Source: Dehalococcoidia bacterium (lineage in GTDB: Bacteria; Chloroflexota; Dehalococcoidia; Lucifugimonadales; CAJWER01). From it: a stretch of 64,000 nucleotides of DNA. A model generated the notes under the pieces. It was not told the origin of the DNA, did not search any database, and was given only the letters and a program-made list of their open reading frames with translations. The position numbers were made by a program, and so were the translations under genes. Shown here piece by piece: positions 3,743-33,967 of the stretch. Position 1 is the first letter of the stretch. Every line of letters starts with the position of its first letter. The stretch covers positions 130,511 through 194,510 of the forward strand of contig CBDBQI010000004.1 of assembly GCA_965209165.1 (NCBI GenBank), given 5' to 3'.

Positions 3743-3888
3743 CGTCCTCAAAGCGCCTCCGGGCTGGCCAACAGCCTCTATCGGAACGTCTGGCCGGTTC
3801 GGGCATGAGCATAGTCTTGAGTCTGATTCCTGTCAACATATAAGATTCGGCCCATCCGCGCTTGATCGCGAATCAAGGAGTCGAGGAG

Positions 3889-7219: not shown

Positions 7220-7242
7220 ACTCTGAAGCTCCTTTCCGAATT

Positions 7243-7301
7243 GGCGGGTCGGACAGGTTCTCCATCTAGTAGCGCGACGACGGGAACAGGTCGCCGGGGT
7301 A
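7243..7301 (-). pseudogene. 59-bp diverged fragment of the menC-like gene (matches 14137-14195)
   Basis: Manual ungapped alignment gives 54/59 identical; reads YPGDLFPSSRY*MENLSDP vs YPGDLFPSSRFYTEDLSDP. Confidence 0.85.
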
Positions 7302-7342
7302 GGGGTCTAATGACCTTTGACCCGATAGACCCTACGGTCGGC

Positions 7343-8299
7343 CTATGGCACAGTTGATTCGGTAATGCGCACTGCGTAGTGGAAGACCTCGTTAAGGAAG
7401 TCTATCCAAGGCTGTCCGTCCTCTGACAATTCGTCCAGCAGGAACACCTTGACGACTCCCATCTGATCCAGTCTGTTCTGCATTTCCTGAGTGACGACGC
7501 CGGCAACGAGGAAGTTAACGCAATCACGCGGAGTAGCTTCGAAGCTCTTCTGCATCGCACCGAGTCGTTCGAGGGCTCCAGCGGGGTCCTTGCCGCCTTT
7601 GATCTCGATCGTCGCTGCATGTCGTGTGCGATCTCCGATCTCCTGCCGAAACAGGATGTCCGGCTCCGACCCAAACCGCATCAAGTAGCCTTTGGGCAGC
7701 TTGAACTCCGTTGCGTCTCTGCTCCGCTCTATGACCAAGCCTTGACTGTCAAGCCAGTTCCTGATGCGGGTCTTTACGAGATTCTCGGCATCCTGACCAA
7801 TGATATTGCGAAACGTTCCATCGAGCCCGATTCCCATGTTGGCAATTATGTTCCGATAGCCATTCTCCAGGGTCCAGTTGGTAGTCCCTTCGATGATGGA
7901 CGAGATCACCCCGTTGTAAAGCCGAGCAACTTCAAGGCTATGTTCGTACTTGACGGGACGCCTGCGCGAATCGTCCTCCCAAGACGAAACTGGCACGGCA
8001 ATACTTGCTACACGCTTTTGGGGTAGAAGGGCAATGCCGCGGTAATACTGCGAGGTTCGAGGATGTTCTCGCAGTAGCCTCGGATGAGCGAACACCAGCT
8101 TGGGCTCTATACCCGAACGGACAGTGTAACTCCACGCCTGCTCACTGATCATGAGGTCATCCAGCCGACGAAAGTCCAACTCCTCGGTGTAGCCGGCAAT
8201 CAACTTCCGTAACTCGTGGTCGGTACGAAGGCGTATCCTCTCCGACATCAGGGTCGATCTGAGACGTGCGGCACGTTGACTACTTACCTCGGCACTCAC
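7343..8299 (-). CDS. Type II restriction endonuclease, XcyI-family-like
   Basis: PD-(D/E)XK motif SEPDILF...IEIKGGKD resembling XcyI family; 3 nt downstream of an MTase. Confidence 0.78.
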   Translation of the reverse strand: MSAEVSSQRAARLRSTLMSERIRLRTDHELRKLIAGYTEELDFRRLDDLMISEQAWSYTVRSGIEPKLVFAHPRLLREHPRTSQYYRGIALLPQKRVASIAVPVSSWEDDSRRRPVKYEHSLEVARLYNGVISSIIEGTTNWTLENGYRNIIANMGIGLDGTFRNIIGQDAENLVKTRIRNWLDSQGLVIERSRDATEFKLPKGYLMRFGSEPDILFRQEIGDRTRHAATIEIKGGKDPAGALERLGAMQKSFEATPRDCVNFLVAGVVTQEMQNRLDQMGVVKVFLLDELSEDGQPWIDFLNEVFHYAVRITESTVP

Positions 8300-8302
8300 T
8301 AC

Positions 8303-9694
8303 TCACCTCCGGACCCACTTGTAGACGCATTTCCTTAGTTCACGTCTCCCGAAGCGGCCCATCTGTTGGCTGGAGTTGCCCTTTCCTCGGGGGAGCATCC
8401 AGATGTTCTCGCAAACCAAACCTGCCTTCTCTGCGAAGTCAGACAGTATCAGGTCGACCGGTACTTCCTCGCCATGATACTGAACGTTGTCATTCACCAT
8501 GATCACGGTTCCGCCGGGTCGAACGACGCGACCCAGTTCAGCGATGACGACGGCCATTTCAAGAAAGTATCCTTCTATCAGCCGGATGACATGTCGATTG
8601 CCCAACTCGTGGATGCGCTCCCTGAGAACGGCGAGCACTTCGTGGATGGCGCTCTGGTTCTGGTACATCTGGAAGGCGTCATTGAGCGGCTGGGGATCCT
8701 CCGAGTAGACTTCTCCCAGCCACGCCAGCTTGGTCTTGTTCTCCACGGTAGCGGACAGCAGGCGTTGCCGTAAGTCGGAGAACGCGTCCTGATCAAAGCC
8801 AAGCCAGGCAAGCTCCAGGGCGTAGGTCCGCGTATAGTCGTACCTGTTCGCATACGGTGGAGAAGTAATGACCATGTCGAATCGCGCGTCGGGCAACGTT
8901 CGCATCAACTCCAAGCAAGAGCCGGTTATGAACTCGGGATATCCGCCTCCATACTCCTGCTTGAGCATGTCGATGTCCTGGATCATTTCGAACAACCGGG
9001 CTCCGAGAGCGTGCTGGAAGGACAGGATAGGCCCTTTGTTCACCCTGGCCCTGAGTGTCCTGCCCGACCGATAGTCCCATCGAAGGTACTGCCCATCCTT
9101 TCGTGTATAGCTCACCTCTTCGAGAACCGTCATACACGCTAGGTTCAGCAAACTCCGCATAGCTTGGTCATCCAGCTTGGCTATGTACTGCCGGGCTTTT
9201 GCGATCGCGGTCTCTGTAGCGTCCGGAAAGGCCGCTTCCGTGATCTTGACGTGGGGGAATGCGTACTTGGCTGGGGCGGGTTCCTGTGACGACACCCTGT
9301 CGATCATATCTCTACCTACGGACTCGAGTGCTGCCTTTGATACCCCGTTGGCAGCCTGTGCGATCCCGTTTCCCGCCAGTACACCGACGGGCATGATCTC
9401 AATCCCTGTAGCCGACTTCCCCTTGCCAGAGGCGACCAGGGGCGTGGTTCCAATGCCGGCAAATGGATCAAGCACAGCGGTCGGCTGATGCTCATCGATG
9501 AGGCGCTCTACAAGAGTGCGCGAGAAGCCCTCTTTGTACTTCATCCAACGGAGACCTGGAACTCCCCGATTCCCCTGATAAGAGACTGTCTTCCGAGTGA
9601 ATTCGGGGTTGACGGAAAGGCGACCGCCGAACTGTTCCTGCAGAGCCTGACGTCCTTGAACACTACCTCCGTTGGGAGACACCATCGGTACCAT
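8303..9694 (-). CDS. Site-specific DNA amino-methyltransferase, probably N4-cytosine (motif I before motif IV)
   Basis: SAM-binding VLDPFAGIGTT near N-terminus, catalytic ITSPPY, N-terminal WMKYKEGFS. Confidence 0.92.
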   Translation of the reverse strand: MVPMVSPNGGSVQGRQALQEQFGGRLSVNPEFTRKTVSYQGNRGVPGLRWMKYKEGFSRTLVERLIDEHQPTAVLDPFAGIGTTPLVASGKGKSATGIEIMPVGVLAGNGIAQAANGVSKAALESVGRDMIDRVSSQEPAPAKYAFPHVKITEAAFPDATETAIAKARQYIAKLDDQAMRSLLNLACMTVLEEVSYTRKDGQYLRWDYRSGRTLRARVNKGPILSFQHALGARLFEMIQDIDMLKQEYGGGYPEFITGSCLELMRTLPDARFDMVITSPPYANRYDYTRTYALELAWLGFDQDAFSDLRQRLLSATVENKTKLAWLGEVYSEDPQPLNDAFQMYQNQSAIHEVLAVLRERIHELGNRHVIRLIEGYFLEMAVVIAELGRVVRPGGTVIMVNDNVQYHGEEVPVDLILSDFAEKAGLVCENIWMLPRGKGNSSQQMGRFGRRELRKCVYKWVRR

Positions 9695-9728
9695 CTAGAC
9701 TGACCTCACGTCGATAGCTGCTGAGAGC

Positions 9729-9756
9729 AGTATAGCATAAGTGTTCGTAATTGCAA
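9729..9756 (-). promoter_or_regulatory. Putative promoter of the RM operon (TTGCAA-N16-TATACT, extended -10) with degenerate LexA-like box GAAC-ACTT-ATGC
   Basis: Minus strand reads TTGCAATTACGAACACTTATGCTATACT; RBS GAGGT precedes ATG 9694. Confidence 0.45.
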
Positions 9757-9789
9757 CCACTTAGTCTGGGATAAACGCATCTTCAGAGT

Positions 9790-9988
9790 CTAGATTATCG
9801 ACCTCGACTGTACCTTCACCTTCTCGAGCCAGGCGCGGTCCGGGCTTGGACAGCCGTCCCTCGAATGGCCTGAACGTCTTGCGAGGCGTCAGCCACACCG
9901 GTACGCCCGCGCCCTGGTACAGGTCGTGGATCGCCTTCGCGTTCGCCCGGCCCGCCCACGCGCCCGGGCTTGATGTTGATCTACTCGC
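9790..9988 (-). pseudogene. Degenerate, internally deleted copy of the 3' end of the menC-like gene (homologous to ~14028-14131 joined to ~14268-14362)
   Basis: With frameshifts and a stop it reads INIKPGRVGG..ANAKAIHDLYQGAGVPVW/LTPRKTFRPFEGRL..LEKVKVQSRSII*, paralleling the C-terminus of 14028-15128. Confidence 0.85.
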
Positions 9989-10129
9989 GGCCCGCCCACG
10001 CCAGCCGCCAGGGTTGCATCGGCCCAGCCAGGGAACCACGCGTTCGGAGCGGGTTCGGCCTGCGGCATACCTCGTACCCATACGTGACGCTAAGGGTGGG
10101 GCGCTTTGCAGTATGCCCCCCGCAGCCGC

Positions 10130-11914
10130 CTACTGAGAATGCAGCTCGTAATAGAGCCCGCGCCTCGCCAACAGCTCCGAATGAGTGCCCTGCTCCACGA
10201 TGCGCCCCTGGTCCAGCACCACTATGCGGTCCGCGTTCTGCACCGTCGACAGCCGGTGGGCGATCACGAAGGACGTGCGGCCCTGCATCAGGCTCTCCAG
10301 GGCCTGCTGGATCTGCAGCTCCGTCTCCGTATCCACGTTCGCCGTCGCCTCGTCGAGGATCAGGATGCGCGGATTCCTGGCGAGGGCGCGCGCGAAGCTG
10401 ATCAACTGCCGCTGTCCCATGCTCAGGTTGGCGCCCCGCTCCTCAAGCTCCGCGTCGTAGCCGTCCTTCATGCGGGCGATGAACTCGTGGGCGCCGACGG
10501 CCTTCGCGGCCACCACCACCTCGGCGTCGGTCAGGTCGGTCCGGTTGTACCGGATGTTCTCGCGCACGGTCGCTGAGAACAGGAAGGGCTCCTGCGGGAC
10601 CGCGCTGATCTGCCTTGAAAGAGAGCCGGGCGTCACCTCGCGCACGTCGTGGCCGTCGATCGTGATCCGTCCCTCGGCCACGTCGTAAAGGCGCATCAGC
10701 AGCGACACGAGGGTCGTCTTGCCCGCGCCGGTCGGGCCCACGAGGGCGACGGTCTCGCCCGGCTCCACGTCCAGGCTGATGTCCCGCAGCACCGGCGACT
10801 CCGGCGCGTAGTGGAAGCCGACGTTCTCGTACTTGACCCTGCCGGTCACGGACGGGAGGGCAACCGCGTCCGGCGCGGTCGGGACGTCCGGCGTGACGTC
10901 CAGGAGCTCGAATACCCGGTCGGCGGCCACCAGGGAGCCGGTGAGCTGGCCGAACTCGCCCGTCAGGTCGCGAATGGGCTCGAACAGCCTGTCTATGTAG
11001 AGGGCGAAGGCGACGAGCAGCCCCACCTCCAGGGACGTCCCGATCATCCGGCCTCCAACGTAGATGACTGTGGCAGTCGCGATGACAGCCAGCAGCTCGA
11101 CCGAAGGCCACAGGCCGTAGCGGTAGCGGGCGGACTTAAGGGCGGCGTCCAGGTTGTCGCTGTTGACCGTCCTGAAGGTACTGGCGTTGTGCCGTTGCCG
11201 GTTGAGGCTCTGCACGACGCGGATTCCCGCGACGTTCTCCTGGATGCTGGAGTTCACGCCGGCGACGGTCACCCTGGCCCTCTTCAAGTGCGGCTGGGCA
11301 AACCGGCGCCAGAACACCAGGCTCGGGACCAGCAGCGCGACCATGCCCAGGGTGATCGCCGCAAGCGTGGCATCCATGAGAAGCATCGCTATGGCAATGC
11401 CCACCACGCTGACCAGGTCGGCCAGCGCGAATGCGAGGACGGCGAACAGCGCCTGGCTCAGCTCCATCGTGTCGTTCTGGACTCGCGACATGACCCTGCC
11501 CGCCTGGTTCCGGTCGTAGAAAGACATCGACAGGGCCTGGATGTGCTCGAAGAGCCGCGTGCGGATGTCGAGGATCAGGCTCTCGCCGACGTTCACGAGC
11601 AAACGGCTATGGACTACGCCCGTGGCTAACCGCAGCAGGGCCACCAGGCAGAAGAGCCCCACAGCTGCTGCGAGGCCTGCAAAGCTGCCGTCGTCCGACA
11701 TGACCTGCCCGTCGATGGCCAGCTTGACCGTCCAGGGCAGCGCCATCATCGTTCCGCTGTATGCCAGCATGGCCGCGAGGGCCAGGGCAATCTTCCCCCT
11801 GTACGGGCGGGCGTACCCCAGCAGCCGAAGAAGCGTCCGCCAGTAACGGATCCTGCGCTCCTCGTCGAGGTCGAGACGCAGGGCCCCCTGGTTCCGGCCT
11901 GTCGCAGTGGCCAT
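10130..11914 (-). CDS. ABC exporter ATP-binding/permease subunit (second half of heterodimer)
   Basis: TM domain plus GPTGAGKTT, LSMGQRQ, ILDEAT, IAHRLST; ATG 11914 overlaps upstream TGA. Confidence 0.93.
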   Translation of the reverse strand: MATATGRNQGALRLDLDEERRIRYWRTLLRLLGYARPYRGKIALALAAMLAYSGTMMALPWTVKLAIDGQVMSDDGSFAGLAAAVGLFCLVALLRLATGVVHSRLLVNVGESLILDIRTRLFEHIQALSMSFYDRNQAGRVMSRVQNDTMELSQALFAVLAFALADLVSVVGIAIAMLLMDATLAAITLGMVALLVPSLVFWRRFAQPHLKRARVTVAGVNSSIQENVAGIRVVQSLNRQRHNASTFRTVNSDNLDAALKSARYRYGLWPSVELLAVIATATVIYVGGRMIGTSLEVGLLVAFALYIDRLFEPIRDLTGEFGQLTGSLVAADRVFELLDVTPDVPTAPDAVALPSVTGRVKYENVGFHYAPESPVLRDISLDVEPGETVALVGPTGAGKTTLVSLLMRLYDVAEGRITIDGHDVREVTPGSLSRQISAVPQEPFLFSATVRENIRYNRTDLTDAEVVVAAKAVGAHEFIARMKDGYDAELEERGANLSMGQRQLISFARALARNPRILILDEATANVDTETELQIQQALESLMQGRTSFVIAHRLSTVQNADRIVVLDQGRIVEQGTHSELLARRGLYYELHSQ

Positions 11915-13653
11915 CAGTCGAGCCCCCGCATCTCTTCGGCCGGCCGGAGCTGCAGGTCGTGAATCCTGCGGTAGAAGCCGTTCAGCTCCAGCAGCTCCTC
12001 GTGCGAGCCGCGCTCGACGATCCTGCCCTGGTCGAGCACGAGTATGACTTCCGCGCTCCGGACCGTGGACAGCCTGTGGGCTATGACGAAGGAAGTCCTT
12101 CCCTTCATGACCTCCTCCATCGCCCTGTGTATTTCCGCTTCGGTGCCCACGTCGACGCTGGAAGTGGAGTCGTCCAGGACCAGCATGGGCGTGTCGAGGA
12201 GGATCGTGCGGGCGATGGCAAGCCTCTGCCGCTGGCCGCCCGAGAGCGTTATGCCGCGCTCGCCCACCCACGTCTCGTACCCATCCGGCAGGCCCTCGAT
12301 GAAGTCATGAAGCTGGGCGACCTTCGCCGCCTCAACGAGATCGTCCATGGTCGGGTCGTCGATCCCGTAGGCGATGTTGTCGCGTATGGTTGCCGAGAAC
12401 GCGAACACGTCCTGCTGCACGATGCCCACGTTGCGGCGCAGCGACTCCAGGGTAACGTCGCGAACGTCGAGGCCGTCGATCAGTACTCTGCCCGCCGATA
12501 CGTCGTAGAAGCGGGGCAGCAGGTGCGCGATCGTGCTCTTGCCCGAGCCCGCCGCGCCCACGATGGCCGCAGTCTGGCCCGGCTGCAGCTCGAAGCTCAC
12601 GTCGTGCAGTGCGGGGACATCAGTGTCGTATTCGAAGGACACGGAGTCGAACTCGACGCGTCCCGTGGCGGACAGGTCCTTCGCATCCCCGGGGACTTCG
12701 AGCGGGTTGCGGGTGTCGAGCACCTCGAATATGCGCTCGCCCGCGGCCAGCGCCCTGGAGAAGACATGCACCCTCCACTCGAACCCGCCAATGCTCGAGG
12801 CCAGCATGACCATGTAGAGCACGAACGATGCCAGCGCGCCCGGCGAGAGCGAACCCTGCTGGACCTGCCATCCGCCGGCCAGCAACACCCCGGCTAGCGC
12901 CACGGCGAAAAGGAACATCAGGACGGCATCCCTCGTGACGGCTAGCTGGCCCTCGAGGATGGAGCTGGCGGCGACCGCCCCCGCCCGCTCCCTGAACCGC
13001 GCTACTTCGTAGTCCCGCGAGCCCAGCGCCTTGACCGTCCTCATTCCGGACAGGCCTTCCTGCACCAGCGTGTTCATCCGCCCGGTCTCCTGGAAAATGC
13101 GCCTGTTGGCGCGGTACAGCCTGGCGGCCAGGCTTACGCCGAACCACGACACGAGAATGAAGCAGGCGAGGACGCCGAGCCCCATGCGCCACTCGATGGT
13201 GATCATGACGGCAATCGGCAGGATGTAGGAGACCAGTGCGGATATGCCGTGCAGGAAGCCGATCGAAATGAACCTCCCGGTGGCGTCTATGTCCACCGTG
13301 GCCCGGGACATCAGGTCTCCGGTCTTCTGCCGGTCGTAGAACCCGAAGTTCAGGCTCTGCAGCTTGTCGAAGAAGTCGTTCCTCAGCCGGTAGTCCGTCT
13401 CCCGGCCGACCCTCTCGCCCATGTAGAGGGCGAGGTAGCCCAGGACCGCCCTGACCAACCCGGCGAGTACGATCTGCCCTACCACGAGAGCCAGCTCGGC
13501 ATGGGCGCTGGCCAGCGCTTCGTCGATGGCGTTGCCGGTGAGGCGGGGGATCGCGACGCGCGGCACGATGGAGCAGACCATCACCACGGCCGTCACGATG
13601 AAGAGCGCCCTGCGCTCCAACGAGTAACCGACCAGCCGCAGCAGGACCTTCAT
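11914..13653 (-). CDS. ABC exporter ATP-binding/permease subunit with degenerate Walker B
   Basis: GAAGSGKST, LSGGQRQR, VLDDST (D in place of catalytic E, as in TM287/288-type heterodimers); start set at ATG 13653. Confidence 0.93.
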   Translation of the reverse strand: MKVLLRLVGYSLERRALFIVTAVVMVCSIVPRVAIPRLTGNAIDEALASAHAELALVVGQIVLAGLVRAVLGYLALYMGERVGRETDYRLRNDFFDKLQSLNFGFYDRQKTGDLMSRATVDIDATGRFISIGFLHGISALVSYILPIAVMITIEWRMGLGVLACFILVSWFGVSLAARLYRANRRIFQETGRMNTLVQEGLSGMRTVKALGSRDYEVARFRERAGAVAASSILEGQLAVTRDAVLMFLFAVALAGVLLAGGWQVQQGSLSPGALASFVLYMVMLASSIGGFEWRVHVFSRALAAGERIFEVLDTRNPLEVPGDAKDLSATGRVEFDSVSFEYDTDVPALHDVSFELQPGQTAAIVGAAGSGKSTIAHLLPRFYDVSAGRVLIDGLDVRDVTLESLRRNVGIVQQDVFAFSATIRDNIAYGIDDPTMDDLVEAAKVAQLHDFIEGLPDGYETWVGERGITLSGGQRQRLAIARTILLDTPMLVLDDSTSSVDVGTEAEIHRAMEEVMKGRTSFVIAHRLSTVRSAEVILVLDQGRIVERGSHEELLELNGFYRRIHDLQLRPAEEMRGLD

Positions 13654-23035: not shown

Positions 23036-23653
23036 CTAGCGCGAGTCCCCTGGGTCCATTCCTGCGTTGAAGCGGTCCCAGGCTGCCGTGACGCTCGCCC
23101 TCAGGTCGTCGAGACTGCGAGAGTTGTCGATCGCCGCGTCGGCCCGGCTCAGGCGGTCCTCGTTCGACATCTGGGCCCGCATCCTGGACCTGATCGACTC
23201 TTCATCGATGCCCCTTGACCCGACTGCCCTGCTGACCGCCGTCTCCTCCGGGGCCGCGACCACCCACACCTCGTCGAACATGTCCTCCCACCCGGCCTCG
23301 AATAAGACGGGAACCTCGACCACCGCGGCCGATACGCCGGACTGCCTAGCGGCATCCAGCCGCTCTAAGACCAGACGCCGGATCCGCGGGTGGACAATGC
23401 TGTTCAGCGTCATTAGGCGTACCGAGTCGCCGAATACGATGCCCGCCAGCTTGCCCCTGTCGATCTCGCCCGAGGGGCCCGCTATCTCGCTGCCGAAGGC
23501 CTCCACCACCTCGCGCCACCCGTCCGAACCCGGCCTGTAGACCTCGTGGGCAACCCCATCGGCGTCTATCACGAATGCACCCAAGTCTCGCAGGATGTCA
23601 GATACTGCGCTCTTTCCGCTGCCAATACCCCCTGTAAGTCCGATTGTCCTCAT
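23036..23653 (-). CDS. coaE: Dephospho-CoA kinase
   Basis: [36 protein letters not shown]. Confidence 0.95.
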
Positions 23654-23734
23654 AGCACTGCGGTTCAGTGAAGGACATCACATAATACCAACGCCCCCCA
23701 AACACGGTCAACAACGAGCCGCTGGTCCACGTAA

Positions 23735-24075
23735 CCGTCGTTCCGGCCCCCGAGCCGGAACCCAGGGGTGGCGAGGAGGGGGAACTCGGGGCGAGGACCG
23801 GGCGAGTCGCAGCTCCGTCGTTCTGGCCCCCGAGCCGGAACCCAGGGGTGGCGAGGAGGGGGAACTCGGGGCGAGGACCGGGCGAGTCGCAGCACCGTCG
23901 TTCCGGCCCCCGAGCCGGAACCCAGGGGTGGCGAGGAGGGGGAACTCGGGGCGAGGACCGGGCGAGTCGCAGCTCCGTCGTTCTGGCCCCCGAGCCGGAA
24001 CCCAGGGGTGGCGAGGAGGGGAACTCGGGGCGAGGGCCGGGCGAGTCGCAGCTCCGTCGTTCCGGCCCCGAGCCG
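23735..24075. repeat. Tandem array of ~4.3 units of 80 bp with a CGTC-type palindrome (CGTCGTTCYGGCCCCCGAGCCGGAAC)
   Basis: CGTCG starts at 23736, 23816, 23896, 23976, 24055. Confidence 0.95.
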
Positions 24076-24124
24076 CCAGGCCAAGGTCGGCTAATTCAAA
24101 GCATGTAGGTAGACCCGACTCTGG

Positions 24125-24990: not shown

Positions 24991-25011
24991 GAGCAGGTCC
25001 CTGCCTGAGCA

Positions 25012-25348
25012 ATGCCTGGTCAGACAGAAACCGGCGAGGACCGGCTGCCCGCCCATTCATCCGGGAGAGATACTCGACGAGGAGTTCCTCCAGCCTATGA
25101 ACATCACCCAGTACCGGCTGGCCAAGGCCATCGGCGTGGACGCGCGCAGGATCCACGCCATCGTTCATGGGCAGCGGTCGATCACGGCGGAGACCGCCCT
25201 GCTCTTCTCGCGATTCTTCGGAAACTCAGCCGCGTTCTGGATGGGACTGCAGAGCCAGTACGACCTGGAGCTCGCCGAGGACCGCCTTGCCGGTAGGCTC
25301 AGCTTGGTCTCAGCCCACTCCGCCGGCTCATCGCAAGCACAGGACTGA
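25012..25348 (+). pseudogene. higA: HigA/VapI-family antitoxin with a one-base frameshift near the N-terminus; no higB nearby
   Basis: PIHPGEILDEEFL..ITQYRLAKAIGV..RSITAETAL..FWMGLQSQYDL; removing one C at ~25048-25050 joins ATG 25012 to this frame. Confidence 0.8.
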
Positions 25349-25360
25349 GCCACCCACCAC

Positions 25361-25390
25361 TGTCATTCCGGCCCACGAGCCGGAATCCAG
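25361..25390. repeat. CGTC-like REP palindrome
   Basis: tgtcattccggcccacgagccggaatccag. Confidence 0.7.
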
Positions 25391-25679
25391 TCCCCGGACC
25401 AATCCGTCGTTCCTGCCTGCGAGCAGGTACCGTCCCCCACCCAGGGGCCCGGGGCGGGCAGCCAAGTTCACCGGGCCATCTTCGGCTAATCCAAAATCGG
25501 ATCTTGAATTAGCCGCGTCCCTTGGCCCAGCACCCGCGAACGGATGCCTTAGAATAGACCCGCAATGACCGGCACCCACGCGCCCGACCACCTCGACTAC
25601 AACGACCCCGCACCCTTAGAAGCCGCATCCGAGATGCCCGCGGGTGGACAATACGGCTCAGTCATTCTACCTGCGCCGT

Positions 25680-25933
25680 GTCGGCGAATACGATGGCTGC
25701 CAGCTTGCCCCGGTCTATCTCGCTGCCCAAGCCCTCACCGCCTCGCGCCACCCGTCCGATCCCGGCACGTAGACCTCGTGGCCAACGTCGGCGGCGACTA
25801 TCGCGAATGCGCCCAAGTCTCGCAGGATGTCAACTACCGCGCTCTTTCCGCTGCCAATACCCCCTGTAAGTCCGATTGTCCTCGTAGCACTGTGGTTCAG
25901 CAAAGGAAATCACATAAAACCAACGTCCCCCAA
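25680..25933 (-). pseudogene. Degenerate duplicate of the coaE 5' end plus its upstream region (homologous to ~23425-23702)
   Basis: Exact run gcgctctttccgctgccaataccccctgtaagtccgattgtcctc shared; start ATG mutated to ACG; internal deletion and frameshift. Confidence 0.9.
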
Positions 25934-26023
25934 CAAGAGCCTCCAAGGCCGGGCGCTGTAGGATCCCTCTTGAGCCTCAATAGCCCGTAGGCATGCTTGC
26001 AAGCTGGAGTCAGTATGGGGCAT

Positions 26024-27046
26024 CTAGTCATCTTCTGATGTATCCTGGAAGGGTAGTTGGCGGCCCTCCGTTAGCCTTGGAGGCACATCTGCAACCCGAA
26101 TGTGCTCCATGAGTTCTCCGCGCTCCTCTTCAGATCCAAGGGATAGAACCATTTCGGCAGCCCGCACGATCACAGCTTGGCTTGCTTCCGTCAGCGAGCC
26201 AACGATGCTCCCGACTGTAGCATTGACTTGTCCTTGCAGTGACTGTCGGTCACGCCATAGGCCGTAGACCCGGCGGCTTACGTCGTCCAGCAGATCATCA
26301 AACCGCAGCGTTACATCGCCTATTGGCGACCGTCCGACATGGCTCAAGAGCTGTGCTCTCAGCTTCTCCCGAAGGGCGTCAAGGTCTTCGTCCCTGCTCT
26401 CCGGAATCCAAGGGACAATGTATAAGGGTCGCGGGTCCTCATCAACTCTTGCTCCGAGTACGAGCCGCTCTGGTGCGATATGTCGCGGAAGCGTCCCGCC
26501 TCCTCGGGCTTCGTGAGCGGCTACAAGATAGACTCCATCTTGTCGAATGGCCACACCGATCACCCCGACGTGGCAGACCTGAGTGTTGCTCGCCTCCACT
26601 TGTCCCTTGAGGGCGATGAGTGTCGCCTCCATTGCACTCATGTCGCCTTCTGGCACCAAGTAGGCGACTTCCGCGGACCCTTCCGGGATCGGTAGCCCTC
26701 GCTGCATGATTTCGCTGCCGGCCAGAATGAGACCCCGCGCCTGACGTGTTTGGCCCGATTCGATCCCAAATGACGATGACTTGCACTCAATGACGACGTA
26801 ATGCGACCTCCTGCCGTTCTCCAGCAGGGCATCGGCCACTGGCGCAATGCTCACTGGCGGAATTTGCGCCTGTAGGCTCTCTCTTTGGCCGATACCTACC
26901 GGCAGAGGTTGCTCAATCGAAAAGAGGGAGTACCCTAGGTTGCGAAGGATTGGCTTCGCCGGCGCACTGGAGGGTTGTGGGAGGGTTGCCCAAGTCAGGA
27001 CATTCAATTGAAAAAGGCTGCTGCCCTCAAGAGCGGGGCTATCCAT
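26024..27046 (-). CDS. Hypothetical protein with N-terminal PD-(D/E)XK nuclease-like motif
   Basis: PVADALL...VVIECKSSSFG...QARG pattern; overlaps upstream gene by 8 nt. Confidence 0.65.
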   Translation of the reverse strand: MDSPALEGSSLFQLNVLTWATLPQPSSAPAKPILRNLGYSLFSIEQPLPVGIGQRESLQAQIPPVSIAPVADALLENGRRSHYVVIECKSSSFGIESGQTRQARGLILAGSEIMQRGLPIPEGSAEVAYLVPEGDMSAMEATLIALKGQVEASNTQVCHVGVIGVAIRQDGVYLVAAHEARGGGTLPRHIAPERLVLGARVDEDPRPLYIVPWIPESRDEDLDALREKLRAQLLSHVGRSPIGDVTLRFDDLLDDVSRRVYGLWRDRQSLQGQVNATVGSIVGSLTEASQAVIVRAAEMVLSLGSEEERGELMEHIRVADVPPRLTEGRQLPFQDTSEDD

Positions 27047-28286
27047 GAATCCGGGATGCTCCGTTCACAGCCTTGCGGAGAAAGTCCTCGTATCGGTGCT
27101 CCCCGACAAACGCCGAGACCTTGGGTTGGACGAAACGCTGAACGTTTGTAACTAGGCGGTGGATCGTATTCCCACAGGTTCCCGATGGCAACAATGCATA
27201 GACATGGTTGCGTGTAATCTCAAGGTCCACTGGTTGCCACAGGTGATTGTCGACGGCGTAAAGGTGTACTTTCCCTGGTCCTCTCATGAGTGGAGTACCC
27301 CACAGCCGAAAGCGGTTCGTCTTCCGGCGCAGGGTGTCGATCCACCGTTCAAACGCCCCGGAATCAAGGGGCTCGCTGAACTGGATCAGCAACGGAGCTC
27401 CGATACGCAGCCCGGTTTGCCCAGTAGCCACCACCGGCCACGCGGCATCCTCCAATTGGTGTGTTGACGAGTCATAGTGCTCCATAACGTCGTGCACCGT
27501 CTGCCGGAATGCGGTCGTTGAATGGCTGCGATTCGTGAAGCGGCCGTCAAAGTAGACGTCGTGCCCGCCCCGGTCTGGCGCTGGGATGCGCAATTGCACG
27601 ATGGAGGCCAGAGGATCGTAGCGCTCTTCCCAGGGGAGAACGGCGTCCTGCATCTTGCCGATGCGCTCGGTGATCTGCACGCGAGCACGGCGGCGTTCAA
27701 CCTGGTGAGGCCGCTCATCTTCAAGAGAGTCATCCTCAATGTCGTAGTCTTCTTCGTTCTGTTCAAGAGGATCTTCTTCGAATCGCTGATAGACGCTCTC
27801 GTGCTCGAAGACGATACGGGAAAAGCGATGGCGCGGGAATGTTCTCTCCACAAGCCCCCAGAGTTGCTGGAACATCGATGGCGATAGCCAAGCCCTGTCC
27901 AAGAGCGGGGAATTTATGACAAGCTGATCGATTCTTCGGTTCGCTATGTCGGACTTGACTCCAGTGTATATGACTGGGTAGCGGTCATTCTTGAGTTCAA
28001 GCAGCGCCCAGTCCTGGGTCTCGTCTGGCCATCGCATGCGAAATAGCGTCTCATCCACCGGCTCGAGTCCTACCCTCGAGCCCCCGCCCAACGCCGCCTT
28101 TGCGTCTCTGCCATTGTTGGTTCGCGAGGTTTCGAGGAGGAAGGCCTTCGTAACTGCCCGCGGCGTCCTACGCGCCCGGGGGCCATCACCCGCCCCAACT
28201 GGCCACCCGTCAAGATAGTCGAAGTACTCTCGACGACCCCGTAGCCGCGGCAGAAGATTCTGGGTTGGCGAATCAGGCATTGACAT
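27039..28286 (-). CDS. Hypothetical protein (415 aa) of unknown function
   Basis: Long ORF with globular composition, central acidic tract, C-terminal FRLWG...AVDNHLWQPVDLEI...GTCGNTIHRLVTNVQR. Confidence 0.75.
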   Translation of the reverse strand: MSMPDSPTQNLLPRLRGRREYFDYLDGWPVGAGDGPRARRTPRAVTKAFLLETSRTNNGRDAKAALGGGSRVGLEPVDETLFRMRWPDETQDWALLELKNDRYPVIYTGVKSDIANRRIDQLVINSPLLDRAWLSPSMFQQLWGLVERTFPRHRFSRIVFEHESVYQRFEEDPLEQNEEDYDIEDDSLEDERPHQVERRRARVQITERIGKMQDAVLPWEERYDPLASIVQLRIPAPDRGGHDVYFDGRFTNRSHSTTAFRQTVHDVMEHYDSSTHQLEDAAWPVVATGQTGLRIGAPLLIQFSEPLDSGAFERWIDTLRRKTNRFRLWGTPLMRGPGKVHLYAVDNHLWQPVDLEITRNHVYALLPSGTCGNTIHRLVTNVQRFVQPKVSAFVGEHRYEDFLRKAVNGASRIHG

Positions 28287-28336
28287 TGTGGGACCCTAGG
28301 AAGATTGAATCATGAGGCAAACAGCACCGACGCTCC

Positions 28337-28354
28337 ATTATAGAACAAACGTGC
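28337..28354 (-). promoter_or_regulatory. -10 TATAAT directly preceded by LexA (Cheo)-like box GCAC-GTTT-GTTC
   Basis: Minus strand GCACGTTTGTTCTATAAT; 7/8 match to GAAC-N4-GTTC; ~50 nt upstream of ATG 28286. Confidence 0.6.
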
Positions 28355-28990
28355 ACAGAAGGCGCAACAAGTCAGCATGGAAGCCGGGGCTCCCACTGCG
28401 TCTGGGCACCGCGAGATGGCGTGCAAGGGGAAGGGTTCGCATTAGTGGGGAACGAGCCTGCTAGGGACGACAAGCGGATGGGTCTGTTGGGTCGTCCTTG
28501 TAGCATCCGCATAGGGCCAGCATCATAGCAACCGTGTACTGCCTATGTAAACCTGAACTGCGACAGTCTTGCTGCAGTCCAGAGGGCTGCGGAAGGGGAT
28601 CTGAGACGGCGGGCTGATTCGATGCGGCTCTCGGCGATACGCTTGCGGTGATGTGGGTTGGCACATCGTCGGCCCTGAGGTCTCGATGACCCGAGCGGTC
28701 GTGTCGCATACTCGCTCGGTCATCTAGCCGGCGCGACCTGCCCTGTAGACGACTCCGATCTGTGAGGCAACGGCGATAATGCCGCCGACGTTGATGACGA
28801 AGTTGCAGGCGGGACTGCTGCCCCAGGAACCGTCTCCCATCCATTCCGGTATGGTGGGCCACCACAATCCCGGTCCGCCGAGCTGTTCATCCACATGAGG
28901 GGATCAGGGAGCGGGGACAGACCACCCTCCCAATCCTGCCAATCCCCCAGAATCCTGATTCAGACACTCCCCCCTCTCTCCCTTCACCAA

Positions 28991-30880
28991 CCCAAATCCA
29001 CCGCCTAATTGGAGAAATGTTATTTTCTGACCTCTCGGTTGGGCCGGTGGGGGCGTCGATTGGCGACTGACGGGGTTAGCAGTGGTTTGGCGGGGCCGAT
29101 GGTGGACGTATGAGGGTCTTGGGGTGCTGATTTGCCATGCTTGCGTCGATTTTGAGCCGTTTGGCCTCGTAGGAGGACGCAGCATCCCTATGACGGTTAT
29201 CCACGTCGCTTGTCCGATAGGCGGATGTAGATAAGCTAGTTTCAGGTTGAGGGAGGGCCGTGAGCCAGCGCCGCTATTCTCCGGTGTGCCCCGACCAGCA
29301 GCGGGAACGATGGATGGCCTCGCGCCAGTCGGATCAGCAGCTTCCTGGCATGGTAGACCACTCGACCGGCAAGGTCGATCAGAGCGAAGCGCACCGCCTT
29401 GAGCCGCTTGGTCACCCACTCATCACCCAGCGCCAACTGCTTGACCGCCGAGTTCAGGTTGAACGCCAGCACCGTTATCGCCCACCACGCTGCGTTGGCT
29501 CCGAACTGTCCCGACGGCAGTCTCCCGCCCGCCAGGTCCTCCTTCAGCACACTATGGACCTCCTCGCCTTTCCCGCATCTCTCACGGTACCACCGCACAA
29601 CCTCGTCTCCCGGAAGCTCCCGGTTCGTCACTATCCCGCTGATCTTGTACCAGCCGTGGTTCGGCATCTGCATGACCGGAACCGACAGCTCAAACTCACT
29701 CTCCATGCCCGGTAGCGGCGGTCGCCTCAGAGGTTCTCTGACGGCTATGAAACGGTAGGCGGGACCCTCCTTGTAGCGACCTAATCGACTGGACATGAAG
29801 CCCACCTCGGCCCACTCCTGCCCCGTCTCCACCTCGAACTCCCCCATCATCCGGGGCAACTGACGCCACTCGCTCTCTTCCACCAGCGCCGCCTCATGCT
29901 TGAACTCGTCCGTGACGCGTACCCCAATCGCGAACTCGATCACTCCGAACCGTTCGTCTCTCCCCTCGGCGCAGTACTCCAGAAGATCGTTCTGGTAGCC
30001 TGCCGTGTCGGACCGCAGCATCACCCGCTCCACTCCCTCGGGTACGCACTCCAACGCGTCTCGCAACACTCGTAGCTGCTCAAATCCCGCGGGAACGTTG
30101 CCGTCTCTGAACTCCGAGTGGACGACCAGGTCCGCCTCGGCCCAGTATGTCGTTAGCGGCTGATAGGCTTTGAATCCCTTGTAGCAGTAGAGCGCCTCCT
30201 GCTTGTGAGTCTCGACCAGCGTCGCGTCCATGTCCAGTGTCGCCTGCCTATGCCCAACGTGGCCCCGAACGAAGCCCACCATCTCGGCGTTGACCTTCCC
30301 AAGTCCGTCCAGCGCGTCGTTGGCCTGGGGTATGAACGCCGTATGAGGCTGCCTCGCCTCCTCCTGGGATGCGTCGTGGAACTGGCTCAGATACCGGAAC
30401 ACCGCCGATGGAGACGGCACATAGCGGTGTCGATCACGCCGCCACCGGTTGCGCTCCGCCCTGCGCTCCGAAGCTCGCTGCCGGTGGGTCTCCACCCTTC
30501 CCAACATCCGGCCAAGGCCCTCGTCCGCCTCCAGCACGCGAAGGTCGTCCACCCCTTCGCCGCCCGCCAGGTTCAACAGCGTCAGTGAGGTGACCATCTG
30601 ACGGTCCGTCCAACCCTGGCCTCCCTCTCTGACCCTCACGTGGCGTCTGATCGACTCGCCAAGGCCGATTGCCTCGGCCATCTCCAGGTAGACTGCCAAC
30701 CCCGATAGCGCCGTCATGCCCCCGACGCGGTTCTCTGCCCTGTACTGGAATGGTAGGACTCCATGTTGCATAATAACTGCACCTCGTTGGTGATGGTTTG
30801 GGATTGTCACTTACCATCTTAGTCAGCTTTGCAGCTGACTCCAACGAGGTCTTCTTCTTGCTTTAGGCGGTGGATTTGGG
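28991..30880 (-). mobile_element. Complete IS1380-family insertion sequence (1890 bp)
   Basis: Perfect 18-bp IRs CCCAAATCCACCGCCTAA (28991-29008, 30863-30880); direct repeat ACCAA at 28986-28990 and 30881-30885. Confidence 0.93.
29242..30810 (-). CDS. IS1380 family DDE transposase
   Basis: LDMDATLV, FRDGNV, LRSDTAGY, YRERCGKGEEVHSVLKEDL, FGANAAW. Confidence 0.92.
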   Translation of the reverse strand: MTIPNHHQRGAVIMQHGVLPFQYRAENRVGGMTALSGLAVYLEMAEAIGLGESIRRHVRVREGGQGWTDRQMVTSLTLLNLAGGEGVDDLRVLEADEGLGRMLGRVETHRQRASERRAERNRWRRDRHRYVPSPSAVFRYLSQFHDASQEEARQPHTAFIPQANDALDGLGKVNAEMVGFVRGHVGHRQATLDMDATLVETHKQEALYCYKGFKAYQPLTTYWAEADLVVHSEFRDGNVPAGFEQLRVLRDALECVPEGVERVMLRSDTAGYQNDLLEYCAEGRDERFGVIEFAIGVRVTDEFKHEAALVEESEWRQLPRMMGEFEVETGQEWAEVGFMSSRLGRYKEGPAYRFIAVREPLRRPPLPGMESEFELSVPVMQMPNHGWYKISGIVTNRELPGDEVVRWYRERCGKGEEVHSVLKEDLAGGRLPSGQFGANAAWWAITVLAFNLNSAVKQLALGDEWVTKRLKAVRFALIDLAGRVVYHARKLLIRLARGHPSFPLLVGAHRRIAALAHGPPST

Positions 30881-30894
30881 ACCAATCCTCCCTC

Positions 30895-30949
30895 TTGACA
30901 AACCCACATCTCTCCCACATAATAGCACTTATGTACGCAACATATGTGC
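30895..30949 (+). promoter_or_regulatory. Near-consensus promoter TTGACA-N17-CATAAT followed by two degenerate LexA-like boxes
   Basis: TTGACA 30895-30900, CATAAT 30918-30923, GCAC-TTAT-GTAC 30925-30936, CAAC-ATAT-GTGC 30938-30949. Confidence 0.6.
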
Positions 30950-32115
30950 CTATCAGGGTGGAGCGGAAGCCGCCCACCATCGCCGAGATCGTCCGCCAAA
31001 AGACCGACGACGGCGCACGCATCATAGACTTCTTCCTCGACCTCATGGAGGGCAGGGTCGAGGACGCCAAGCTGTGCCACAGGATCGACGCGGCCAAGCA
31101 GCTCGTGAAGTACGGGTACAAGAAGGCCGCCGACTTCATCGCCGAGCACGGCGACGAAACCTGCGACCATTGCGAGAGTCGGAAACGCGGCCCACGCCCC
31201 CGCAAGGACCAGAGCCCGGCCGCCGGGCCTCTGCAGTCCTCGCCCCTGCACGTCCAGGGTCCCTATGGGTATGACTTCCTCACTATGCTTACGGAAGACT
31301 TCCTCACCGTGCTCTCGGCGGTGGACGAAGACCTGATGATCAAGCTCCTCCGCGCCCAGACGCGCGACGGCGGCACCGTCATCGACTTCCTGGACAACGT
31401 CATGCACGGCAGGGAAGATGGCTTCAGGGTCAACCACAGGATATCCGCCGCCAAGGAGCTCATCTCACACATCCTCCACGACGAGCATGCATTCGCACAC
31501 GCAGTCCTCGATAACATATGGGCAGACCCACGTGTCCGCCCGCTTCCCGCCTCCCAAGTCCCCTCTCCCTCGACTCTTACACCCTCTCCCTCGACGGGAG
31601 AGGGATGGGGTGAGGGTGACTCCCCGGCGCGCGGCTCAGTAGGGGCGATTTTGAAACCCGCCCTCCCCGGTGCGGCATGGGAACCCCGCAACCCCGCAAC
31701 CATCGTCAGCACCGTCGTTCCTGCGGAGGCAGGATTCCTGCCCCAGGAACCGTCCCCCACCCAGAGGGGCGACGAGGGGCGGATCGAGCCCGCTGATGAG
31801 CCTGTCCTGAGCCCAGTCGAAGGGCCCAACTCAATCGTCGTTCCGGCGAAAGCCGGAACCCAGGGGAGTGGCGGGGCCCGCAGCGCCACACCCAACGGTG
31901 CTAGTGCCGAGCCCGTCCCGAGCACCGACGAAGGGCCTGTCCTGATCACTGTCGAAGAGACCAACTCAACCATCGTTCCCGCGCAGGCGGGAACCCAGAG
32001 GAGCGGCGAGGGGCGGAGCCACTCCCAACTAGAAACTCTCCCCCACGTAGAGGGTGACAAGGACGAAGAACCTGCCCCGGCAGAGCTCACCCCAGGCCGC
32101 TCGCCGCCCTACTAG
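30931..32115 (+). CDS. Hypothetical protein with two copies of a ~50-aa helical domain and a REP-derived low-complexity tail
   Basis: IVRQKTDDGARIIDFFLDLMEG..HRIDAAKQL vs LLRAQTRDGGTVIDFLDNVMHG..HRISAAKEL; start assumed at leaderless ATG 30931. Confidence 0.65.
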   Translation: MYATYVPIRVERKPPTIAEIVRQKTDDGARIIDFFLDLMEGRVEDAKLCHRIDAAKQLVKYGYKKAADFIAEHGDETCDHCESRKRGPRPRKDQSPAAGPLQSSPLHVQGPYGYDFLTMLTEDFLTVLSAVDEDLMIKLLRAQTRDGGTVIDFLDNVMHGREDGFRVNHRISAAKELISHILHDEHAFAHAVLDNIWADPRVRPLPASQVPSPSTLTPSPSTGEGWGEGDSPARGSVGAILKPALPGAAWEPRNPATIVSTVVPAEAGFLPQEPSPTQRGDEGRIEPADEPVLSPVEGPNSIVVPAKAGTQGSGGARSATPNGASAEPVPSTDEGPVLITVEETNSTIVPAQAGTQRSGEGRSHSQLETLPHVEGDKDEEPAPAELTPGRSPPY

Positions 32116-32151
32116 ACCTCGACCCAACAACACAACAGAATAGCGAGCTCT

Positions 32152-32262
32152 TACCCCCTCTCCCTCGACGGGAGAGGGTTGGAGTGAGGGCGACTCCCCT
32201 GCGCGACAACACACCGCATCGCGCGCCTCTGTAGGGGCGGGTTTGAAACCCGCCCTCCCCGT
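32152..32262. repeat. Composite palindromic element (CCCTCTCCC..GGGAGAGGG hairpin plus GTAG REP), similar to 31581-31668
   Basis: ccctctccctcgacgggagaggg..gtgaggg..gactcccc followed by gtaggggcg..ttgaaacccgccctcccc at both sites. Confidence 0.8.
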
Positions 32263-32339
32263 GGCGTGCGGGAAGCACTGGCCCCGCACCCCCGTCTGTG
32301 CTAATGTTCGCGTCAGACCGCGTAGCTGGAGACTGAACC

Positions 32340-33843: not shown

Positions 33844-33885
33844 GAGAGCTCACCGCAGAGCTCCGGGCGGCGACCCTTGCACAAT

Positions 33886-33916
33886 CGTCATTCCGGCGAA
33901 AGCCGGAATCCAGAGG
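33886..33916. repeat. CGTC-type REP between convergent genes
   Basis: cgtcattccggcgaaagccggaatccagagg. Confidence 0.75.
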
Positions 33917-33967
33917 GTGGTGGGGTCAGCTAGACGACTACATCGAGCGAAACCGAGTCCCTGTAAG

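Follow-up and report, generated by a model that had tools for sequence, protein, structure and literature searches.

A candidate two-gene defence module pairing an MJECL33-family protein with a PD-(D/E)XK-fold protein in a Dehalococcoidia genome

In McrBC, Hachiman (HamAB) and Gabija (GajAB) the gene for a PD-(D/E)XK-type effector is coupled to a second gene that encodes no nuclease, and all three systems are patchily spread and located in defence islands. These traits are shared by the two-gene unit A-B described here, which was found in a 64,000-nucleotide stretch of a Dehalococcoidia genome (the window). Unlike the partner proteins of those three systems, A is no NTPase or helicase and in its model shows TBP-like domains instead, and it matches no Pfam, NCBIfam or PADLOC model of McrBC, Hachiman, Gabija or Shedu. 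Shedu offers a likeness for the nuclease alone, the model of B aligning to SduA at Z 5.1 and to McrC at Z 5.2, both of which are among many restriction-fold chains that align to it. Type III restriction systems resemble those homologous loci (at least 10 of 80) in which the pair lies directly beside the methylase (mod) or helicase (res) of a Type III-like operon, and Type I systems resemble 2 loci in which A-B shares one operon with hsdMSR, whereas the window locus carries no methylase or translocase. RdgC, CENP-L and TBP are the best structural matches of A, which adds a third domain and motifs of its own. As in LexA-regulated mobile and defence genes, a lineage LexA operator abuts a -10 hexamer at the window locus; unlike such genes, the A-B family does not keep the operator in its homologous loci. 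A-B is presented as a candidate new defence module, probably undescribed so far. In the reading preferred here, to which a probability of about 50% is given, A and B would form one heteromeric, self-contained, horizontally mobile, restriction-like immune nuclease, raised through LexA in this genome.

Gene A (27039..28286, minus strand, 415 aa) precedes gene B (26024..27046, minus strand, 340 aa); both start with ATG, and in the ORF listing they overlap by 8 nt (27039-27046), as the sequence-only reading of this DNA had it when it described two co-directional ORFs forming one unit. Two of its remarks on the setting also stood. GC3 is lower than in housekeeping genes, at 0.66 for A and 0.60 for B vs 0.81-0.93 for the adjoining coaE, CbbQ-type AAA, NUDIX and GFO oxidoreductase genes, and a coaE duplication scar lies beside the pair, with a partial coaE copy (ORF 25715-25903; Pfam CoaE, E 1.3e-9) and 88% identity between 25731-25933 and 23499-23701. 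Its remark that no methyltransferase is attached was right for the window locus, where ten ORFs scanned between 21.5 and 33.8 kb contained no methyltransferase domain and no cognate methyltransferase or translocase for restriction-modification, but not for other loci, where a methylase adjoins the pair in some Type III-like operons. The nearby IS has perfect 18-nt inverted repeats (28991-29008 and 30863-30880) and a transposase matching DDE_Tnp_1_4 (E 1.9e-31). Rfam gave 0 matches between 23.5 and 32.5 kb.

The pair lies in a strain-specific island of about 7.3 kb (25009..32276) that also holds the partial coaE copy, an HTH gene, the IS and a second SOS-type promoter. The island is missing between the same flanks in the closest syntenic genome, which is of the same genus (G007). 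A was present in 2 of 61 related genomes and in none of the 8 of the same genus, and DNA similarity to the nearest relative (L001) spans exactly 26052-28285, that is, the two genes only. At 50% identity the A family falls into 648 clusters, and species-representative genomes contain at least 148 of its loci; on a quick tree of A, phyla are intermixed. Across 62 loci the pairwise identities of A and B were correlated (r = 0.95, a value reached by 0 of 999 permutations), with A more conserved than B (mean identity 42.5% vs 29%). The patchy occurrence among relatives, the mixing of phyla and the low GC3 indicate that the A-B cassette is horizontally mobile; it is passed on as one unit among distantly related bacteria and archaea. 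A search for longer, fused forms of A found none, which is weak evidence.

A B-like ORF directly downstream of A on the same strand was recovered in 71 of 80 homologous loci with an HMM and in 74 of 80 by BLAST clustering. These loci come from many phyla, and apart from antisense shadow ORFs no family other than B was common to more than 14 of the 80. This recurrence in other genomes shows that the pairing exceeds chance, and with it the proposed two-gene unit and the expected co-occurrence of homologues were borne out. A multimer prediction, also suggested by the sequence-only reading, gave A-B a complex score of 0.87, the best control scoring 0.01. The score mark used is reached by 58 of 80 solved complexes and by 2 of 110 mismatched pairs, counts that hold only roughly for A-B, for which the analyst's own alignments were used. 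At least 90% of contacts agreed between runs, with partner pLDDT of at least 82. A and B are accordingly predicted to form a complex, with an interface (A residues 284-398, B residues 199-210) that coincides with the best-conserved motifs in each protein. In A these belong to the C-terminal TBP-like domain (aa ~292-398; 27093..27413, minus strand), delimited by conservation and fold, with the hallmark motifs H-x-Y-A-V-D-x-H-L-W-Q-P and G-T-C-G-N-T-x-x-R. In B the predicted contact includes the invariant linker DPRPLYIVPWIP (aa 204-215; 26402..26437, minus strand), with the pattern DPRPLY..PW.P. On this model the conserved C-terminal motif of A would be mostly a docking surface for B. A sequence search of the PDB with both profiles returned no like complex and nothing below E 0.19.

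The AF2 model of B (pLDDT 88.4) has the alpha-beta-beta-beta-alpha-beta core fold of restriction endonucleases followed by a winged-helix-like C-terminal domain. Residues 1-195 matched NucS (Z 7.7, rmsd 3.3, 107 aligned), AF1548 (6.9), BsmI (6.9), FokI (6.7), SdaI (6.2), LlaBIII (6.2) and Can2 (5.6); most of the top-ranked matches are restriction-fold nucleases, with moderate Z values. Residues 220-321 matched JetB (Z 5.8) and CAP (5.2). The translation contains D72...E87-C-K89...Q102; in the model strand 70-77 carries D72 and strand 82-88 carries E87-C-K89, and the codons of the catalytic motif D72...E87-x-K89 are at 26780..26833 (minus strand). In 62 intact homologues E87, K89 and Q102 are each present in 62, and the D72 position is D in 53 and E in 9. 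The restriction-type spacing D...ECK...Q that had been read from this protein is thus supported by fold match and conservation alike. By modelled fold and motif, B is a member of the PD-(D/E)XK nuclease superfamily, and we infer that it cuts DNA.

For A, 293 homologues were found, and among the matches listed 120 of 120 carry PF25924 in precomputed annotation; the nearest ESM Atlas clusters (score 0.97) have PF25924 on 74-83% of members. PF25924 'MJECL33' is a family named after an ORF, with no function attached, in keeping with the failure of the sequence-only reading to assign the upstream protein to a named family. The AF2 model (pLDDT 83.4) consists of three TBP-like alpha/beta domains, looks non-enzymatic and matches no enzyme. 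In structure comparison its matches were CENP-L (Z 8.0-8.1 over 190 residues), RdgC (Z 6.0-6.5 over 174-178 residues) and TBP (Z 6.8 over 82), with identities of 5-13% and no sequence signal; Z values up to 8.1 are at a level that the tool calls common for models without a true match. As these fold matches are middling, they point only weakly to a DNA-binding role for A; a sensor or scaffold role is plausible. A GGDEF/palm-like assignment (Z ~6, 117 aligned) was dropped: arginines are present on strand 196-208, taken by the analyst as the counterpart of the strand that binds metal, and unrelated folds give Z values just as high. Two features noted at the outset were found in the translation: a highly acidic stretch, EEDPLEQNEEDYDIEDDSLEDE, and the conserved-looking C-terminus RLWG..AVDNHLW..GTCGNTIHRLVTNVQ, which is conserved in homologues. 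The acidic loop is predicted to be disordered (aa 167-192; 27711..27788, minus strand; pLDDT < 50), varies in length and is D/E-rich in most distant homologues. Outside the predicted interface, the invariant polar residues E52, R102, D130, Y271, E279, D346, H348, C371, N373 and R377 could have an enzymatic or ligand-binding role, a Cys-His-Asp triad of D346, H348 and C371 being a conceivable reading.

No system model of PADLOC-DB 2.0.0 matched A or B significantly, which agrees with the proposal that the system is novel. A match of A to PD-T4-10_B (E 0.007) was rejected, as just 1 of 45 members of the A family gives it; the B of the window itself gave no family, and 2 of 33 B members matched AbiEi and 2 of 33 PDC-S02, at E ~0.03. 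Pfam and NCBIfam scans of A and B gave nothing significant, and for neither model did Foldseek retrieve a PDB or BFVD structure at E 0.001 or below. The families PF25924 (MJECL33) and PF27326 (MJECL32) are named after adjacent ORFs of the large plasmid of M. jannaschii, and tblastn from A reached a gene of this plasmid at E 1e-8. Downstream of the A-like gene there, and overlapping it, is a gene with a D..ECK motif that can be aligned to B (58 columns in hhalign, probability 67%). PF27326 is found on 1 of 49 B homologues (P0169, 22% identity), and the close relatives of B carry no precomputed Pfam family. No literature was found on MJECL33, MJECL32 or PF25924, families that the supplements of defence-island surveys might list, or linking RdgC-like proteins with anti-phage activity. 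In passages of two papers (PMC8868631, PMC6112328), only MJECL36 is concerned.

In 34 of 80 homologous loci the pair has restriction-modification genes (Type I or Type III-like) or an SNF2 helicase within ~7 kb, and in several of these the neighbours share one operon with A-B. The pair sits between the Type III-like methylase and helicase in 7 or 8 loci, and operons so arranged (Res-A-B-Mod, Mod-A-B-Res) are found in, among other phyla, Nitrospirota, Planctomycetota, Acidobacteriota and Aminicenantota; a weak RE_endonuc match was obtained for 1 of 3 of the helicases of Res-A-B-Mod operons. Type I hsd genes lie within ~7 kb in 15 of the 80 loci and are operonic with the pair in two, with the orders hsdM-S-R-A-B and A-B-hsdM-S-R (L057 and L046). 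In the Type I and Type III-like operons with A-B the genes abut or overlap, in several phyla, and the quick tree of A requires 3 changes to explain the Type III label and 6 to explain that of Type I.

PrrC within the EcoprrI operon is a precedent for guard behaviour, as is PARIS, and the placement of A-B inside or at the end of Type I/III-like operons in several phyla, together with the recurrence of the restriction association on the tree of A, would suit a guard or back-up of restriction systems. An inactive A-B would then fire once a phage anti-restriction protein blocks the neighbouring Type I/III enzyme or helicase, leading to abortive infection or second-line cutting, and the stand-alone copy in the window would sense a more general signal. 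The remaining 46 loci, the window's included, have no restriction-modification or SNF2 neighbour within ~7 kb, which speaks against this explanation, and we consider it unlikely. As A-B stands alone in these 46 loci, it is not a canonical restriction-modification subunit either, and an immune nuclease able to work by itself remains the preferred reading.

On a B. cereus plasmid A-B adjoins Hachiman and MazF, and on the M. jannaschii plasmid it adjoins OLD-family endonuclease, EVE, PIN and VapBC genes. Together with the 34 loci having restriction-modification or SNF2 genes, these plasmid neighbours support the defence-type neighbourhood that had been anticipated; a raw tally, made without a random-gene baseline, counts against it, the 123 representative flanking genes including ~50 plain housekeeping and ~29 defence or mobile genes. 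Residence on plasmids beside MazF and VapBC genes would also be expected of an addiction cassette in which B is a toxic nuclease and A its tight inhibitor, maintained by post-segregational killing and with no dedicated immune role. The tight predicted interface, the position of A upstream of and overlapping the nuclease gene, and the movement of the pair as a two-gene unit fit that explanation. Usual type II toxin-antitoxin proteins, however, are far smaller than A and B, the higher conservation of A than of B tells against it, and the presence of the pair within restriction operons suggests that it acts on foreign DNA, so that an addiction cassette appears very unlikely beside the immune nuclease preferred here.

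The sequence-only reading had placed an SOS-box promoter upstream of A, and this held in part: the site matches the LexA consensus of the lineage at 15.3 bits but is absent from the 80 homologous loci. The LexA-box-like site TAGAACAAACGTGCAC (28341..28356, plus-strand reading) lies 55 nt before the ATG of A and abuts a perfect -10 hexamer TATAAT of the gene strand (28337..28342, minus strand), 50 nt upstream of that ATG; read on the minus strand, GTGCACGTTTGTTC (28356-28343) is directly followed by TATAAT (28342-28337). On the plus strand the box is GAAC-AAAC-GTGC, which fits the operator consensus of a PWM built from the lexA promoters of relatives. Its score is comparable to those of sites near dinB (15.8 bits) and radC (15.4 bits), ranks 24th of 65 distinct genome sites of at least 12.5 bits and has a chance of ~0.001-0.002 per 200 bp. 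Genome-wide, however, the number of positions that reach this score is near chance, 26 vs 21.8 predicted from composition and 18 when the genome is reversed, and leaving out the one training site that resembles the box most lowers the score to 13.5 bits. No good -35 element was found for TATAAT, and a promoter scan picked not this hexamer but TTTACA-18-TATGAT at 28551-28522. None of the 80 homologous loci reaches 12 bits, the four other Chloroflexota loci scoring 2.2-7.4 bits, and similarity to the closest relative ends at the ATG of A. If the IS were removed, the intergenic region with the box would also contain a textbook SOS promoter. A LexA box upstream of A is thus plausible as a feature local to this genome, in which A-B probably sits behind a LexA-repressed promoter; as the homologous loci do not share the box, damage induction is a local feature at most and not a property of the system.

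The LexA-type box would also fit a DNA-damage repair or processing complex, in which B is an SOS-induced structure-specific nuclease and A an RdgC-like DNA-binding protein. The repair nuclease NucS is the best fold match of B, A resembles RdgC, and one homologous locus has an SRAP gene after the pair. Vertical inheritance is usual for repair genes, whereas A-B is very patchy among relatives and exchanged across phyla, occurs on plasmids and within restriction operons and does not conserve the box. A dedicated repair complex is therefore held to be improbable, and the immune nuclease is retained as the preferred reading.

In the mechanism proposed for that immune nuclease, B would be the effector, a DNA endonuclease using D72, E87, K89 and Q102, and the C-terminal domain of A would clasp the DPRPLY..PW.P linker and the first helix of the winged-helix domain of B. 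The first two domains of A, RdgC- and CENP-L-like, would bind DNA or sense the trigger, and its acidic loop may serve as a built-in inhibitor. The cassette would have come in with the 7.3 kb island and would work alone here under a LexA-repressed promoter, A-B being raised after DNA damage; elsewhere, joined to Type I/III-like operons or placed ahead of an SNF2 helicase, it may receive translocation and self-marking from these partner genes. We infer DNA cleavage, its target, the defence role and LexA control of A-B. A wider reading, doubtful as a whole, takes MJECL33/MJECL32 as an ancient plug-in nuclease module of bacteria and archaea in which a TBP-fold clamp holds a restriction-fold nuclease. 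Such a module would restrict DNA alone or dock onto Type I/III enzymes or SNF2 translocases, either to do the cutting for them or to stand guard and fire when they are disabled, and would have been captured by the SOS regulon in this Chloroflexota genome.

Should A-B turn out to be an immune system, it would bring in a partner fold (TBP/RdgC-like) that described defence systems lack, and a small nuclease module joined time and again to Type I and Type III restriction operons would bear on how restriction systems are assembled and backed up. The LexA link, if real, would give a further bacterium that couples such a module to the damage response. The predicted interface and the strictly conserved residues are direct targets for mutation. 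A set of 50,697 phage records gave 0 matches. PHROG 22469, a family with no function attached, matches residues 243-391 of A at E 6.9e-13.

The two co-directional genes reported in the sequence-only reading lie on the minus strand, A at 27039-28286 (415 aa, ATG start) and B at 26024-27046 (340 aa, ATG start), with 8 nt in common. The acidic stretch and C-terminal motif quoted there are both found in the A translation, the D...ECK...Q spacing is present in B as D72...E87-C-K89...Q102, and GC3 is lower, as claimed (0.66 in A and 0.60 in B versus 0.81-0.93 in neighbouring housekeeping genes). The flanking coaE copy and IS are also as described. Directly downstream of B is a partial coaE copy (ORF 25715-25903, Pfam CoaE, E 1.3e-9), with 25731-25933 being 88% identical to the resident coaE, and upstream of A is a 1,890-bp IS at 28991-30880 with perfect 18-nt inverted repeats (28991-29008 and 30863-30880) and a 522-aa DDE_Tnp_1_4 transposase. 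The stretch 25009-32276 is without counterpart in the closest syntenic same-genus genome, in which the coaE and oxidoreductase flanks are 1.6 kb apart versus 9 kb in the window. A was present in 2 of 61 related genomes, its own and one of the same order (58% identity), and in none (0/8) of the other genomes of the genus searched for it. In comparison with the nearest relative available (L001, 73%), DNA similarity is restricted to 26052-28285 and ends at the A start codon; the conserved unit is therefore exactly the two genes.

No Pfam, NCBIfam or PADLOC 2.0 model matched A or B; B also had no match among PHROG models, and A matched PHROG 22469 (E 6.9e-13), which is without assigned function. 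The AlphaFold model of B was confident (pLDDT 88.4, pTM 0.85), and Foldseek returned only weak rows, of which many were restriction enzymes. Using an exhaustive structural aligner, residues 1-195 matched NucS (Z 7.7), AF1548 (6.9), BsmI (6.9) and FokI (6.7), with further restriction-fold matches at Z 5-6 (SdaI, LlaBIII, SfsA, Can2, McrC and Bax1), and residues 220-321 matched winged-helix-type domains (JetB 5.8, Scc1 5.5, CAP 5.2). The top N-terminal matches are thus mostly restriction-fold nucleases at moderate Z, and with the motif at the expected position the model supports the PD-(D/E)XK fold proposed earlier. In 62 B homologues (single ORFs >120 bits, nine loci having been set aside for a split or weak copy), conservation was 62/62 for each of E87, K89, Q102 and N15, with D at position 72 in 53 homologues and E in the other 9. 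For A, a large protein search gave 293 homologues, and among the matches listed 120/120 had precomputed PF25924, named 'MJECL33' in the ESM Atlas; one distant homologue of B has PF27326 ('MJECL32'). Profile searching against 1.84 billion representatives yielded 648 clusters at E ≤0.001, the best 150 of which were fragments or about 360-500 aa without added domains; no fused form of greater length was found, a negative that is weak evidence. No papers on the PF25924/MJECL33 or PF27326/MJECL32 families were found in a search that left newer catalogues and defence-island survey supplements outside its scope.

The A model (pLDDT 83.4) had no clear structural match. Residues 16-277 aligned with CENP-L (Z 8.0-8.1), Iml3 and RdgC (Z 6.0-6.5) and residues 291-400 with the AdoMetDC prozyme (Z 7.6), CENP-N (6.9) and TBP (6.8); A is read as three TBP-like domains in the model, at a Z level often reached by unmatched models according to the tool. 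Residues 167-192 form a disordered segment in the model, and the segment is acidic in most distant homologues. Among members sharing only 18-25% identity, E52, R102, G248, Y271, E279, D346 and R377 are invariant and D130, W133, H348, C371, G372, N373 and Q383 near-invariant. The multimer prediction gave A-B a score of 0.87 (three runs: 0.88, 0.84, 0.87) versus 0.01 for the best control, with contact agreement of at least 90% and partner pLDDT of at least 82; of 80 solved complexes 58 attained the score mark, as did 2 of 110 mismatched pairs, counts that hold only roughly because our own alignments were used. The predicted model supports A-B binding without demonstrating it. Its interface comprises the C-terminal domain of A (284-398, including H341, Y343, W350-P352 and E356) and, in B, the invariant DPRPLY..PW.P linker (199-210) and the helix at 223-239, and would explain much of the conservation remarked on from sequence; A residues D346, H348, C371, N373 and R377 lie outside the listed interface, and their conservation is not accounted for by it.

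Scanning one genome per species identified 148 loci encoding an A relative, and the best 80 of these were compared (Chloroflexota, Actinomycetota, Acidobacteriota, Nitrospirota, Planctomycetota, Bacillota, candidate phyla and archaea). A was followed by a co-directional B-like ORF in 71 loci by HMM and 74 by BLAST clustering; one of the loci lacking B is truncated at the end of its contig. Across 62 loci, the pairwise identities of A correlated with those of B at r = 0.95 (0/999 permutations as high), which shows joint inheritance, not contact. Phyla are intermixed in a quick tree of A, and the pair occurs in nine plasmid records. The large plasmid of M. jannaschii has an A homologue (E 1e-8), then an overlapping gene with a D..ECK motif aligning to B, adjoining an OLD-family endonuclease and EVE, PIN and VapBC genes; a B. 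cereus plasmid carries the pair (hhalign probability 99%) next to MazF and Hachiman hamAB. Two MAGs labelled Aminicenantota and Elusimicrobiota (L065 and L066) have identical A proteins, owing either to misbinning or to a transfer of very recent date.

In 34/80 loci, restriction-modification or SNF2 genes lie at a distance of up to about 7 kb. Type III-like operons of abutting or overlapping genes, with an N6_N4-type methylase and a ResIII-type helicase, were found in L014, L019, L020, L029, L032, L035, L065, L066, L071 and L072; in L020 (Blastocatellia MAG, 3661-12578) five genes abut, namely ResIII helicase, A, B, DUF5131 (phage Gp37/Gp68 family, E 9e-103) and N6_N4 methylase. In seven loci, all Acidimicrobiia or kin, an SNF2 helicase of ~1100 aa directly follows B or, in L056, where B is missing, A; the one tested (L017) has a NOV_C domain. 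Type I hsd genes occur at 15 loci, two of which (L046 and L057) have them in a single operon with A-B. On the quick tree 3 changes are needed for the Type III label, of which well-supported branches force at least 2, and 6 for the Type I label, at least 5 of them forced. No gene family other than A, B and the shadow ORFs antisense to them was common to more than 14/80 loci. In our own tally of 123 representative immediate neighbours, made without a random-gene baseline, ~29 were defence or mobile genes (integrases, HNH, TIR, Mrr, RAMP, Schlafen, RAMA, PIN), ~50 housekeeping and ~40 without Pfam match. In the best-supported reading, with a probability of roughly 0.5, A-B is a mobile, self-contained heteromeric nuclease acting on foreign DNA. 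B would be the cutting subunit and A its clamp and a probable DNA-binding or sensing subunit, and the module may work alone or be wired to restriction translocases and methylases. That A-B instead guards restriction systems would suit the shared operons and is unlikely given the many loci at which such genes are missing. An addiction cassette would suit the plasmid copies and fits poorly with the copies embedded in restriction operons, and is very doubtful.

The LexA operator was derived from lexA promoters of 30 loci, one in the own genome and 29 from relatives (one without tblastn match, two without site), giving an order-wide box of about GAAC-N4-GT(A/G/T)C and a PWM of 24 distinct sites, the candidate site not among them. 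The genus lexA promoter has TTGACA-N17-TACATT and then two boxes (C7:214009-214037 in the window's own genome; L099, L104, L105, L107, L108), with half-sites GTAC and GCAC instead of GAAC and the first box overlapping the -10 hexamer TACATT. The SOS-box promoter claimed for A stood in part: TAGAACAAACGTGCAC (28341-28356, + strand reading, 15.3 bits) matches the lineage consensus and abuts TATAAT, 55 nt before the A ATG, but no good -35 was found and 0/80 homologous loci have a box ≥12 bits. It ranks 26 of all genome positions and 24th of 65 distinct sites ≥12.5 bits, the top sites including lexA (rank 1), class II ribonucleotide reductase (13), a dinB-type polymerase (20), radC (22), two XRE regulators and unrelated genes. 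These 26 positions compare with 21.8 predicted by composition and 18 in the reversed genome; once the most similar training site is dropped the candidate falls to 13.5 bits, a value that 49 positions then equal or exceed. For any one 200-bp stretch, the probability of such a site arising by chance is 0.001-0.002. Seven of the 80 homologous loci beat 95% of random windows, about chance expectation, and the four other Chloroflexota loci scored 2.2-7.4 bits. A textbook SOS-type promoter lies 14 nt past the IS end at 30894-30951 (+), with TTGACA-17-CATAAT followed by two LexA-like boxes in tandem, GCACTTATGTAC (17.0 bits) and CAACATATGTGC (11.7 bits), in the layout of the genus's own lexA promoter. 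It faces an apparent ORF (30829-32115, without Pfam match), the length of which is inflated by short GC-rich repeats; were the IS absent, this promoter and A would have one intergenic region. LexA control of A-B could go either way on this sequence evidence and, if real, is a local acquisition. An SOS repair complex, for which the box beside TATAAT speaks and the homologous loci do not, is improbable.

LexA-like box TCGTACATGAGTGCTA (17.7 bits) occurs in three copies in the same genome (C6:620408, C6:220848, C5:303154), two with a second box alongside as in the lexA promoter. Transposases of 520 aa (DDE_Tnp_1_4, Pfam score equal to that of the window IS) are encoded at C7:212343-213905 and C7:163797-165359; one is divergent from lexA, its start 117 nt away from the LexA box, and the lexA promoter is closely preceded by a sequence resembling the end of the window IS. 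At the left island edge, 25097-25348 (+) encodes an orphan 83-aa HTH_3 protein (E 1.4e-7), convergent with B, and no partner toxin ORF was seen for it. An ~80-nt unit is present in four tandem copies between coaE and the HIT gene (23734-24100), with related 18-nt cores again at 25355 and 31707. Short GC-rich repeat elements lie at 31574-32266 and 33869-33932, and the 33.9 kb element matches at dozens of places in every genus genome, like a REP-type dispersed repeat.
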